Below are positions 31,177 to 35,804 of a stretch of DNA of 40,647 nucleotides, piece by piece. Made by a program: the position numbers and the translations under genes. The stretch is from NCBI GenBank assembly GCA_044220955.1, contig JBGAQA010000059.1, forward strand, positions 1 to 40,647. The letters are read 5' to 3'. Under the pieces are notes generated by a model. That model saw only the letters and a program-made list of their open reading frames with translations, was not told the origin of the DNA and searched no databases. Each line of letters opens with the position of its first letter. Positions within the stretch are counted from its first letter, which is position 1. The stretch is from Sandaracinaceae bacterium (lineage in GTDB: Bacteria; Myxococcota_A; Polyangia; Polyangiales; Sandaracinaceae).

Positions 31177-34100
31177 ATGTCTTCCCGGCGGCCACCGCAC
31201 CTGCGGCTCCTCGACGTGGCGCGCGCCTCGGCCGGGGCGGACCCCCTTGAAGGCGGGCTCGGCTCCCCGTACCTTTCCGTCGCACCGGGAGGGACTCTCC
31301 TGCCGGGTTCTGCCGCGGGAGTGCTCATGGCGCAGCCGTCGGTTCTGGGATCGTCCGTTCCCGCGTCGGTAGGCGCGTCGAGCACCGAGGGGTCGCGTGT
31401 GATCCACGGTCCGCTCTCCGCGGAGCGCCCGCAGTCCGCGTGCGCCGGACGCGAGAGCGAGATCGCGCGCCTCGAGGAGGCCTACCGCGCCACGCAGCAG
31501 GGCGCCGATCGCCTCGTCCTGGTCGAGGGCGGCCGCGGCGTCGGCAAGTCGCGGCTGCTCGCCGAGCTCCGCGGCCGCGTCCGGCTCGAGGGCGGCGTCG
31601 TGCTCGAGGGGCGCTGCGAGCCCGGGCGCGCGTTCGGTCCGTTCGCCGAGATCGTCGAGCGCGCGCTGCGCTTCCTCGAGGAGATCGGCGTGGCGCCGCA
31701 GGCGGACCTCTCGGGGCTGAGCTGTCGCGCCGGCTGTCATCGCCTCTGGCACCAGCACGGTGGCACCGACTCGGCCGCGCTCGAGCTGCACGGGCGGGCG
31801 GCCGCGGGCGCCGCGATCGGGACGCCCCGTGGGGGCGACGCCTCGGGCGCGCCGCCGGAGATCGCGGCGTTCGAGAAGCGCATGCGCTTCCTCGACGCCG
31901 TCTCGATGCTGCTGCGCGAGGTGGCGCGGGTGCGCCCGCCGGTGCTCTTGCTCCACCACCTCGAGCGCGCGGATCGAGGGACCCTCGATCTCGTTCACTT
32001 CCTGCTCGACGGGTCGGTGACGCTCGGCTCGAGCGGCCGAGATCCCGAGCCGGGCGCCGTGCGCGCGCTCGTGGTGGCCAGCGTGCGCGACGACGTCGAG
32101 GCGACGCACCACGACGCGCTCGAGCAGCTTCGCCGCCACGGCGCCACGCGTCAGCTCGTCGTCGGGGCGCTCGACACCGCGGGCGTGCGTGCCTACGTGC
32201 AGTCGGACGAGGCCATCGCGCGCATCCTCGCGCGTACCGGCGGCAACCCCGAGCTCATCGATCTCTTGCTCGAGGCCGACCCGCTGACGCCGGAGGCGCG
32301 CGTCGAGCGACGGCTCGCCCGCCTCTCCGACGCCGGCCGCAGCCTGGTCGCCGCGCTGGCCGTGTTCGGCCGCCCCGCCAGCGTCGAGACGCTCGCCTCG
32401 ATCGCGGGCGTCTCGCGCGATCACGCGGGACGGGCCGACCTCGCGCCCTGCGACCTGCTCGTGCGCTCCATCGTCGACGGGCAGATCCTGTACGCGTTCG
32501 AGCGTGAGACCGACCGCAACGCGTGCGCGCAGCTGCTCGGCGAGGCCCAGCGTCACGAGATCCATGCGCGCGCGGTCGACGTCTGCGCCGACCGGCTCGA
32601 GCTCGAGGAGGCCGTGCGTCACGCGATCGCGACGGGTGACTTCGCGCGCGCCGCGGACCTGGGCATCGCCGCGGCCGCGTCCCTGGCGGCCCGCCACGCG
32701 CACGCGGAGGCGGCGACGCTGCTCGAGAAGCTGCTCGGCGCGACCGACGGCAGCGTACCGCTCGTGATCCGCGAGGAGCTGGCCGACCTGTACCGCGTCG
32801 CCGGTAACTACCGCGCGGCCCTCGCGCACGCTCGCTTCGTCGAGAGCGCGCGCCCCGAGGACCCCGCCTCCGCGCGGCAGGTCGGCTACCTGCTCACGCT
32901 GCTCGGGGATCTCGGCGCCGCCGAGGAGCCGCTCGGGCGCGCCCGCGACCTCGCCGAGAGGCGGGTCGGGCTCGGCACGGACCCGCGCGACGTCCTGCAC
33001 CGCAAGGCCGAGCTGGCCGAGGTCGAGGCGCAGCTCGCCGAGCTGCACTACCAGCGCGGCGCCTACGCCCGCGCGCGCGAGTGGGCCAAGAGCGCGCTCG
33101 CGCTCGCCGAGGCGACGGGCACGACGCGGATCGAGCTGCACGCGCGCAACACGCTCGGCAAGCTCGCGCTCGCGCAGAAGGATCCGGCCGAGGCGGCGCT
33201 GCTCTTCGAGGAGAACCGCAAGAAGGCGGCGCACGCCGGCCTCGGGCACCAGGAGGCGCAGGCGCACACCAACCTCGGCGTCGCGATGCTGCTCCGACGC
33301 GATCTCGGCGCTGCCGAGGAGGCCTGCAAGCGGGCGATCGAGGTCGCCACCCGCGCGAGTGACACGCGCGATCGCGCGATCGCCACCGAGAACCTCGCCG
33401 TCCTGGCGCACCTCGCGCGGGACTACCGGCGCGCGCTCACGCACTACCACGTCGCCGTGGCGCTCCTGCGCCGCCTCGGCAACCGCGCGATGCTCGCGCG
33501 CGTCGCGACGAACCTGGGCGAGCTCTACCTGAGCCTCGGCGACCGGCACCGCGCCCGGGCGTTCTGCGATCTCGCGGCCCACGTCGCCGGCACGCAGCAC
33601 GGGGTCCCTGGGCAGGGCGCGCCCGTGACGGGCGAGCGCCTCTGCCTGCGCGGCCGCCTCGAGGCTGCCGAGGGCCGTCACGAGCAGGCCCGCGCAGCGT
33701 TCGAGTCGGCGCTCGAGATCTTCCAGCGTCTGGGCAACGCGCGCACGGTCGACGTGCAGCTCGAGCTCGCTCGCCTCTCGCTGGAGGACGGCGACGTCAG
33801 CGGTGCGGCGCGCGTGCTCGAGCGGATCGAGCCCGGTGACTCGTCGCCCAAGCGCGCCGCCGAGATCGCGCACGTCGCGGCCCGCCTGGAGCGTGCGGCG
33901 GGGCGTGATCCCCTGGCCGCCTGCCGACGCGCGGTGGATCTCGCCGAGCGCACCCACGACGACGAGACGCTGCTCCCCGCGCTGGTCCTCTACGCGCGCT
34001 GCTTGGTGGACGCGGGCGAGAGCGGGGCGGCCGCGCGCATCGTCGAGCGCGCGCAGCAGGTCGATGCGACGCTGGCCCGCAACGTCCCGGAGGACTCGGC

Positions 34101-35304: not shown

Positions 35305-35804
35305 GCCAGGCGATGAACATGACGAAGCGAACGGGGTGGGCGGGGATCTTCGCGGCGCTGGCCGCGGCGAGCCTCATGGGGTGCGCGGGCGATCCGGCGG
35401 TCACGGGGGAGGGCTCGCCCCTTCTCGGACCGGACGCCCTCCCGCTGCCGATGGCGGCGACGGACATGCTGGACATGGCGCCCGACTGCGCGGGCCGCCT
35501 GGGCGACGTGAGCGCGTCGAACTACCGCTTCGAGGTGGCGTCGCTGAGCGCGGGCCTGGTGGCGGTGGTGGACGCGGCCGGCGGCGTCGTGTGCGTGGAC
35601 ACGGTCAGCGACGTGCAGTCGGACCTGGATGCGTCCGGGCAGTCGGCCGAGGCCGACACGCTGGTGGCGGGCTTCCAGGCGGCGGCGCACGAGGCCGACG
35701 GGCGGGATGCTCGCTTCGCCGGGCGCGCGCTGCCGGGCGATCCGGAGCCGCAGCCGAACGACCGTCCGGGCGCGATCCCGGATCCGGAGCCGCAGCCGAA
35801 TTGA
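35301..35804 (+). CDS. Small lipoprotein ending in duplicated DPEPQPN peptide
   Basis: ATGA overlap with the regulator stop; signal peptide with lipobox LMGC; C-terminus PGDPEPQPNDRPGAIPDPEPQPN. Confidence 0.8.
   Translation: MSQAMNMTKRTGWAGIFAALAAASLMGCAGDPAVTGEGSPLLGPDALPLPMAATDMLDMAPDCAGRLGDVSASNYRFEVASLSAGLVAVVDAAGGVVCVDTVSDVQSDLDASGQSAEADTLVAGFQAAAHEADGRDARFAGRALPGDPEPQPNDRPGAIPDPEPQPN
35739..35800 (+). repeat. Exact 20-bp direct repeat GATCCGGAGCCGCAGCCGAA x2 (period 42)
   Basis: Copies at 35739-35758 and 35781-35800 encode DPEPQPN. Confidence 0.9.

Follow-up and report, generated by a model that had tools for sequence, protein, structure and literature searches.

A sigma-54 activator with STAND and TPR domains and its coupled, heptapeptide-bearing lipoprotein: a candidate receptor-ligand pair in Myxococcota

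The genes described here lie in a 40,647-nucleotide stretch of DNA (the window; positions 1 to 40,647 of contig JBGAQA010000059.1, assembly GCA_044220955.1) from a member of the Sandaracinaceae. They encode a large activator of sigma-54-dependent transcription and, overlapping its 3' end, a small lipoprotein in which the heptapeptide DPEPQPN occurs twice. A first-pass annotation of the sequence had proposed that the two are a peptide receptor and its signal, and from our comparative sequence analysis the pair is a real, conserved and apparently uncharacterised receptor-ligand candidate. The two genes have the following features.

31177..35304, + strand: activator of 1375 aa with STAND, TPR, bacterial enhancer-binding protein (bEBP) and helix-turn-helix (HTH) parts (list of open reading frames, Pfam/NCBIfam profiles)
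31441..32013, + strand: STAND/AAA_16 nucleotide-binding domain (Pfam PF13191, E 1.4e-19)
32542..34176, + strand: TPR superhelix, residues 456-1000 (Pfam and AlphaFold2 model)
34279..35013, + strand: sigma-54 AAA+ activator domain (Pfam PF00158, E 2.4e-71)
34504-34521, + strand: GAFTGA loop, residue 1110
35167..35283, + strand: Fis-type HTH with the family signature LGMKRPRLSQ (Pfam, signature search)
35301..35804, + strand: translationally coupled lipoprotein of 167 aa (lipobox, homologues, model)
35382, + strand: lipobox Cys28 of the lipoprotein (signal ending LMGC)
35739..35759, + strand: DPEPQPN copy 1, residue 147
35781..35801, + strand: DPEPQPN copy 2, residue 161, C-terminal

Pfam placed AAA_16 at residues 89-279 of the regulator, TPR_12/TPR_MalT at 693-962, Sigma54_activat at 1035-1201, the AAA+ lid at 1207-1279 and HTH_8 at 1331-1362, in agreement with the first-pass annotation, which had read AAA_16, TPR, a bEBP with GAFTGA and an HTH in one 1375-aa protein. 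All NCBIfam equivalogs listed fell below their cut-offs. The N-terminal layout is that of a STAND protein, with a nucleotide-binding domain, a helical domain and a winged helix (the latter deduced from secondary structure), after which come a repeat sensor and an effector, and the effector is that of a bEBP, an AAA+ Sigma54_activat domain with GAFTGA plus an HTH; GAFTGA, GSFTGA or GAYTGA was found in 98/98 alignment rows. The AlphaFold2 model of residues 85-1000 (pLDDT 92.2, pTM 0.89) has as its top structural match 6MFV, a STAND protein with a TPR sensor, at E 2.8e-11 and a query-normalised TM of only 0.33. LGN-peptide complexes rank high among the structural matches of the TPR region, and sequence matches of the regulator are the MalT TPR structure 1HZ4 and AfsR.

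The Walker A motif of the regulator is intact (GGRGVGKS) and its Walker B motif is degenerate (LLLHHLERAD, with HH at 260-261). In the 71 of 114 relatives that retain Walker A GK (several lineages have lost it), the Walker B columns never hold an acidic pair. The canonical STAND ATPase switch implied by the first-pass annotation is thus probably not what operates here. Since Walker B lacks its acidic pair and Walker A GK persists in only part of the family, the nucleotide-binding oligomerisation domain seems rather to serve as a conformational latch that in many members would lack ATPase activity.

The regulator stop overlaps the lipoprotein ATG by 4 nt (ATGA), as had been noted. The lipoprotein begins with a hydrophobic signal ending in LMGC, and profile searches assigned it to no Pfam or NCBIfam family. 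Its predicted structure has a small folded core, which contains two conserved Cys residues (C63 and C98), and an extended tail that bears both motifs. A fold search with the core was uninformative (best Z 5.8) and the ESM Atlas returned nothing at 0.9 or above. The two DPEPQPN copies are encoded by an exact 20-bp DNA repeat at 35739 and 35781 and the second runs up to the stop codon, again as first described. Because DPEPQP occurs only at these two sites in all six frames of the 7.5-Mb assembly, the duplication is not due to chance. Close homologues are source-named Sandaracinus or Sandaracinaceae, and both copies are present in 29 of the 30 closest proteins, the other (P0019) ending inside copy 1.

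We examined the linkage of the two genes from both sides. A search starting from the lipoprotein covered 32 genomes of the family (the count and alignment A2 include L007 from genome G029) and found it in 29 of them, with the regulator C-terminus directly upstream in 30/30 loci. For the reciprocal search, the N-terminal region and the HTH signature of the regulator were used as queries; in the two scans of the collection, 80 of 387 and 80 of 403 places were taken. We obtained 201 distinct regulators, of which the 195 with at least 400 nt of downstream sequence were evaluable. A lipoprotein-like open reading frame (signal and lipobox called by an in-house rule) follows 192 of these 195, and its start lies at -4, the 4-nt overlap of the window, in 134, whereas the same caller was positive after 126 of 831 control reading frames, 23 of them at -4. 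The expectation that the downstream gene would consistently be a lipoprotein was therefore borne out. The three exceptions are L076, in which the regulator stop is lost (its lipoprotein is present as L008), L217 and L259.

With the TPR core we collected 20 deeper loci, 14 of them from family members and six from a sister group. An adjacent lipoprotein is present in 8 of the 12 evaluable family loci. In family f51 the lipoprotein gene can be displaced yet is kept: all five genomes searched (the four without an adjacent copy and one more) have it, with PxPxPW, three of them at a distance of 1.7-6 kb downstream and the other two on a different contig. Among 401 sampled genomes of the phylum the HTH profile matched 77 and the TPR profile, which includes the sister group, 112; the distribution is patchy, and the sampled families f38 (0/29) and f42 (0/11) gave no match. 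A search among 1.84 billion proteins was dominated by generic TPR proteins, and the distribution given here is that within the phylum. Genomes G162, G018 and G026 each carry two or three paralogous regulator-lipoprotein pairs, mostly with differing motifs, and paralogous pairs within one genome bear different motifs (e.g. L047 versus L053 and L073 versus L068). Apparent frameshifts in the L056 lipoprotein, the L076 regulator stop and the L015 regulator tail may be assembly errors. No description of this pair was found in the literature covered, which mostly comprised papers available without subscription.

The 185 partner lipoproteins (69-329 aa, median 162) have three dissimilar body types that share only the lipobox and a heptapeptide of the form x-P-x-P-x-P-x. 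The first is a Cys-Cys core plus tail like that of the window (68/185, assigned by pattern), the second consists of short low-complexity proteins with PxPxPW, many from Polyangiaceae-titled records, and the third of proteins of about 290 aa in which the motif is inserted internally in 1-9 copies (five such partners were tested and matched no Pfam family). Conservation of the motif, on which the first-pass annotation had staked its reading, is evident in 174 of the 185 partners, with 1-9 copies each, and near variants occur in most of the other 11. By a background rule that is crude and misses the window's own lipoprotein, a restricted form of the motif occurs in 3 of 270 lipoproteins of the same genomes compared with 106 of 135 partners (shuffled mean 6.5). 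The short partners of family f17 (L058-L065) carry two different proline motifs, PTPEP and GPTPQ[IV]P[IV]P, either of which could be the ligand.

Two features stressed at first did not generalise. In only 19 of 165 partners is the last copy at the very end of the protein, and the motif is internal to the ~290-aa proteins of families f35, f56, f51 and f67, so that the C-terminal position in the window is a lineage trait, and a reading in which a C-terminal peptide is the active element was rejected on the same count. The exact DNA repeat is likewise atypical, since adjacent copies within a gene encode the same peptide in 129 of 146 cases and have the same DNA in only 18. Codon differences between copies are overwhelmingly silent (325 synonymous vs 28 non-synonymous), and the identity of copies to one another, 0.80-1.0 within the seven positions, drops to 0.46 immediately ahead of them and 0.30 immediately behind. 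Across genes, the first motifs differ widely (60 kinds among 107 genes). Because copies are kept the same in peptide rather than DNA, with identity dropping outside the seven residues, we conclude from these alignments that selection keeps the copies of each gene at one lineage-specific peptide.

Two other accounts of the repeated motif were rejected. A ribosomally synthesised, post-translationally modified peptide of the graspetide type is not indicated because an ATP-grasp homologue occurs in only 5 of 140 loci, all of them with DPEPQPN. An ATP-grasp protein does lie directly 3' of the window lipoprotein (35860-37128, + strand), a placing seen in just those five loci. A ribosome-arrest peptide (presumably of the RAGP-like kind) is contradicted by a motif that is repeated and mostly internal, with no recurring sec or yidC among the downstream clusters listed.

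Along the N-terminal 1000 aa of the regulator, the polar residues that are best conserved form a ladder on successive TPR helices, with E622 conserved in 125 of 130 rows and N658, K662, N699, N739 and N779 in 119-126 of 131. The groove that they would line was located from the helix register of the AlphaFold2 model, from which we listed 40 groove-facing positions:

33040..33513, + strand: predicted peptide groove with the ladder E622/N658/K662/N699/N739/N779 (conservation and helix register of the model)
33370-33372, + strand: specificity residue D732 (covariation; M772 is a second candidate)

To score covariation between motif and regulator, we counted coincident changes on the branches of FastTree trees. 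Changes at motif residue 7 coincide with changes at column 732 in 15 of 21 cases (3.0 expected, z = 7.9; next column 4.3), and with more rows this column still ranks first among 1148 (z = 7.2). Column 732 equals N739 minus 7 and was already among the 40 groove positions. The residue 7-732 pairs are N-D (24/24), S-E (22/25), D-R (4/4) and W-A (30/33), which, as read from the alignment, are compensations of size and charge. Among 30 held-out rows with less than 95% identity to the first set, 22 of 22 in the N, S, D and W classes fit, and independent N/S versus D/E pairs agree in 7/7 cases (p = 0.016, on a tree built without columns 600-830). For motif residue 5 the best column is 772 (z = 4.8), which occupies the corresponding position in the next repeat. 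A co-fold of TPR residues 456-1000 with the last 34 residues of the lipoprotein, run without controls, scored 0.01 (mark 0.32) and is given no weight in either direction. In the sister TPR-bEBP group, which lacks E622/N658/K662 and has another HTH, none of the six loci has an adjacent lipoprotein. These sister loci (L431-L436) have open frames of 1389-2006 aa with the HTH sequence IDRRTLYNKL and are missing both the full ladder and the lipoprotein; four of them converge on genes that we take to be rplQ and rpoA.

Since residue 7 and column 732 covary with complementary chemistry, direct contact is the simplest reading, and we regard recognition of the motif by the TPR groove as highly probable. 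The peptide-signal/receptor proposal of the first-pass annotation thus stood with respect to linkage, motif conservation and the predicted covariation between motif and TPR, and fell with respect to the emphasis on the C-terminus, the exact repeat and the canonical STAND switch.

Upstream of the pair lie a further bEBP gene and two predicted regulatory elements:

29338..31047, + strand: FHA-bEBP gene (Pfam FHA and Sigma54_activat), a conserved upstream neighbour of closer orthologues
31085..31100, + strand: predicted activating sequence CGTCA-N6-GCACG, located 50 bp ahead of the -24 element
31150..31164, + strand: sigma-54 -24/-12 element TGGAACGTCGCTTGC (pattern match; the ATG follows 12 nt later)

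The gene caller's version of the regulator (P0031) is shorter, at 1325 aa versus 1375 aa. The longer version is supported by the position of its ATG 12 nt past the -12 element and by relatives with a similar in-frame start, which lies at +10 to +17 in 19 of the 37 relatives with such a promoter. The same spacing suggests that the regulator mRNA is leaderless. The motif HLRLL[DE] recurs at the start of the otherwise variable N-terminal extension (31198-31215 in the window, and several orthologues). Sigma-54 elements were found in the sense direction in 32 of 91 upstream regions (2 antisense; 3.4% of random windows) and the dyad CGTCA-N6-GCACG in 42 of 99 upstream regions, compared with a single one among 87 downstream regions (3.4% of random windows), counts that are to be read with the dyad pattern having been drawn by eye and both patterns tuned on part of the loci tested. 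The dyad is present in paralogues and in lineages where the upstream FHA-bEBP was not seen, so that autoregulation of the operon is likely; the dyad would then be bound by this regulator rather than by the neighbouring FHA-bEBP. RNA sequencing runs contained only small shares as contigs and give no indication of expression.

A scan of the genome (G000) found both elements at two places only, this promoter and G000:C290:39357, which precedes genes for a secreted protein and a matrixin (PF00413) protease. Besides G000, four orthologues of the matrixin operon in the genus have both elements strongly and a fifth weakly. In this operon (L370; G000:C290:39409-41228) the secreted protein is followed by a matrixin that ends in a Cys/Gly motif, a hydrophobic helix and a basic tail, a C-terminus that we take to be MYXO-CTERM-like. 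Another regulon candidate, at G000:C298, was dropped as it is not conserved in four orthologues of the genus. Of the 29 matches to a family-wide promoter pattern (a reversed control had 8), 12 lay at the regulator and 17 elsewhere; the other targets are leads only. Several candidate targets also start 13-15 nt past the -12 element, and promoters with both elements at L362, L366 and L345, near noise, precede a conserved lipoprotein (in two g6 genomes) and a large secreted protein.

The FHA-bEBP C-terminus lies upstream of the pair in 34 loci, as a neighbour that need not belong to the system. Downstream of the pair, 48 of 120 loci (e.g. L082:2546-4744 and L119:5673-7778) have a conserved histidine kinase with seven transmembrane segments (7TM), GAF and HisKA domains, which resembles PrsK but scores below the family cut-off. 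Peptide importers of three classes (Opp-type, OPT and PTR2) are encoded in the genome, unlinked to the pair. Elsewhere in the window, a cobalamin riboswitch (RF00174, 72.7 bits; 39114-39276, + strand) precedes a lipoprotein gene with GSDG repeats (39407-40570) in what is possibly a B12-uptake locus, a divergent gene for a 597-aa lipoprotein-like protein (37156-38949, - strand) has no Pfam family, and the product of 26106-28805 (+ strand) resembles HelD, a motor that recycles RNA polymerase, at a score under the family cut-off.

Beyond the linkage, the selection on the motif, the 732 covariation and the promoter elements, which sequence analysis establishes, we infer physical binding, processing, import, activation rather than inhibition, autoregulation and a protease loop. 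We give about an even chance to a one-component peptide-sensing module that would combine these steps. The lipoprotein would be the carrier, or pro-peptide, of a proline-spaced heptapeptide, here DPEPQPN; it would be exported and lipidated, and proteolysis in the periplasm or at the surface would free the protease-resistant heptapeptide. An X-Pro start and a Pro-X end would be natural stopping points for general exopeptidases, so that a fixed cleavage site would not be needed. Proline-rich peptides generally resist proteolysis (PMC4452362). A general peptide importer would carry the heptapeptide to the cytoplasm, where it would sit in the Asn-lined TPR groove, residue 732 reading residue 7 and residue 772 probably residue 5. 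Binding would lift a STAND-type autoinhibition and allow the bEBP domains to oligomerise, and sigma-54 transcription from CGTCA-N6-GCACG promoters would follow, giving positive feedback at the operon itself. In this genus, the secreted matrixin-type protease operon would also be driven and could free more peptide. What the peptide reports might be cell density, the lysis of neighbours or proteolysis in the cell's own envelope. The sharp seven-residue boundaries and the unlinked importers are compatible with such maturation and re-import.

Several observations count against this module or parts of it. A pheromone precursor would need neither the lipid anchor nor the conserved folded body present in two of the groups; no conserved cleavage signature follows the motif among the partners compared, no protease or importer cluster recurs beside the pair among the loci examined, and the adjacent lipoprotein is missing in 4 of 12 further deep loci, all of family f51. 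On the regulatory side, the dyad pattern was not found in 57 of 99 upstream regions, including all those examined from f17 and f56, both elements are missing in the matrixin operon of another genus (L388) and in 22 distant paralogues, and a wider scan gave 4 strong matches vs 0, 0, 0 and 3 for shuffled matrices. The covariation is likewise incomplete. Column scoring gave no clear partner for motif positions 1 and 3, and the lead of column 772 for residue 5 is thin (4.8 vs 4.5 for the next). The 732 code is not universal: S7 occurs with H in 3 rows, W7 in deep lineages pairs with I, V, T or N, and M7 with G, H, P or A. On a tree from the bEBP part only, 4/4 N/S versus D/E pairs agree at a p of only 0.125; the sign test omitted the three S/H rows, and its column had been picked on overlapping data. 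The 14 held-out W-A cases, being from related genomes, are not independent events.

The foremost rival, which we consider rather unlikely, needs no import. Here the TPR groove would bind the motif on the intact cytoplasmic precursor, so that when Sec export or lipoprotein maturation lags, multivalent precursor accumulates and turns the activator on; in a variant, the precursor is an anti-activator whose export switches the activator on. Such an export monitor accounts for all the binding evidence, for a lipobox retained in every body type, for the 4-nt overlap in 134 of 195 loci and for a pair with no importer or protease linked to it, and up to nine motif copies would give avidity. Why there should be 60 different motifs, each matched by changes in the receptor, is not readily explained by it, although drift with compensation is possible; family f51 lost the coupling yet kept the pair, and the ~290-aa group would need its motif exposed before folding.

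A second rival, to which we assign little probability, dispenses with direct contact. The motif would bind a third protein, located in the envelope (such as the 7TM-GAF kinase or a protease), and the activator would merely be co-transcribed, its input coming from elsewhere, for instance from the upstream FHA-bEBP or from phosphorylation. Activator and lipoprotein do reside in different compartments, and the frequent kinase (48/120 loci) and FHA-bEBP (34) neighbours fit this arrangement. It leaves unexplained, however, why independent branches show chemically complementary changes at TPR residue 732, and the kinase is absent beside the window pair and was not found in G000 with an N-terminal query (genome 88% complete). 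Least probable of all is contact-dependent sensing of kin or intruders, in which a neighbour's lipoprotein or a large fragment of it would reach the cytoplasm through vesicles or outer-membrane exchange and have its motif type read: lineage-specific motifs with matching receptor residues, a lipid anchor suited to vesicle or membrane transfer and the precedent of lipoprotein exchange between outer membranes in Myxococcus (PMC8546572, PMC4488436) speak for it, but no entry domain is apparent and a motif that is identical genus-wide, with DPSPQPS common to several genera, is too coarse for strain-level kin discrimination.

We lean towards the view that NLR-like sigma-54 activators across many Myxococcota families read a self-encoded proline heptapeptide in lipoproteins, independently of RRNPP, through a residue code of Asn-Asp, Ser-Glu, Asp-Arg and Trp-Ala, and that transcription, that of secreted proteases included, would thereby respond to the proteolysis of lipoproteins or to a failure of their export. 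If true, this would be cytoplasmic peptide-receptor signalling in Gram-negative bacteria that arose independently of RRNPP, the peptide-receptor systems of the cited papers, which belong to Firmicutes. It would also give myxobacteria other than Myxococcus, as predatory and social diderms, a defined candidate self-signal, and bacterial STAND regulators would gain a self-peptide among their ligands; the export monitor, if true, would be a categorically new system. The claim is cheap to test, with a seven-residue peptide, one predicted specificity residue with swap partners and a predicted promoter, and a cultured organism carries a close homologue (P0035, source-named Sandaracinus amylolyticus). 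The residue-732 code could yield orthogonal peptide-inducible sigma-54 switches.

The pair resembles several known systems in part. Avs proteins and bacterial NLRs share the STAND plus TPR sensor, which in them binds a protein ligand, but they carry a cell-killing effector that is missing here, where the effector is a bEBP. PADLOC matched no defence STAND model and only the bEBP part, to RtcR models, and the passages of PMC13581612 covered do not mention this family. MalT, PH0952 and AfsR have the same order of nucleotide-binding domain, helical/winged-helix region and TPR sensor, and inducer binding to a STAND sensor relieves autoinhibition (PMC6468293). Unlike them, the regulator described here has a C-terminal sigma-54 AAA+ effector, a self-encoded peptide as its putative ligand, a degenerate Walker B and, in several lineages, a lost Walker A. 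With NtrC, NifA and PspF it shares an AAA+ domain with GAFTGA, a Fis-type HTH, a -24/-12 promoter and an upstream dyad, but its N-terminal input comprises about 1000 aa of STAND and TPR. RcsF, NlpE and FlgM/ExsE are lipoproteins or exported proteins whose location or fate reports the state of the envelope or of export, and they signal through membrane kinases or partner switching, whereas in this pair the apparent reader of a short motif is a TPR groove in the cytoplasm.

The closest comparison is with RRNPP(A) systems such as PlcR-PapR, NprR-NprX, Rap-Phr and AimR-AimP, which are found in Firmicutes whereas this pair belongs to the diderm Myxococcota. We judged membership by the five criteria of RRNPP_detector (10.1101/2021.08.18.456871). 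The regulator has TPRs (Pfam, model and structural match) and the genes are adjacent (4-nt overlap, 192/195, with exceptions in f51), but the precursor of 167 aa exceeds the 10-70 aa of RRNPP pro-peptides and the receptor of 1375 aa exceeds the 250-500 aa of RRNPP receptors. Because two of the five criteria thus fail, both on size, the pair is not an RRNPP member. The same differences hold across the family, in which receptors of about 1150-1400 aa with STAND and sigma-54 bEBP domains accompany lipoprotein precursors of 69-329 aa with three kinds of body. The likenesses are nevertheless extensive. In both, the gene for a cytoplasmic TPR protein lies just upstream of that for a precursor exported through Sec, an export that is predicted for the lipoprotein, and a heptapeptide and identical repeated copies are further common points. 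The Asn-lined groove and the dependence of specificity on few residues, both predicted for the myxobacterial pair, also have RRNPP parallels: as many as six copies of the peptide occur in RRNPPA pro-peptides, among which single-position specificity is known (PMC9765709), and RRNPP receptors touch the backbone of their peptide with a conserved Asn (PMC6458997). The heptapeptide PapR is matured by a protease under PlcR control and enters through Opp, in the known PlcR-PapR-NprB loop (PMC4147580), and the predicted autoregulation and secreted protease target of the myxobacterial pair would be its counterparts.

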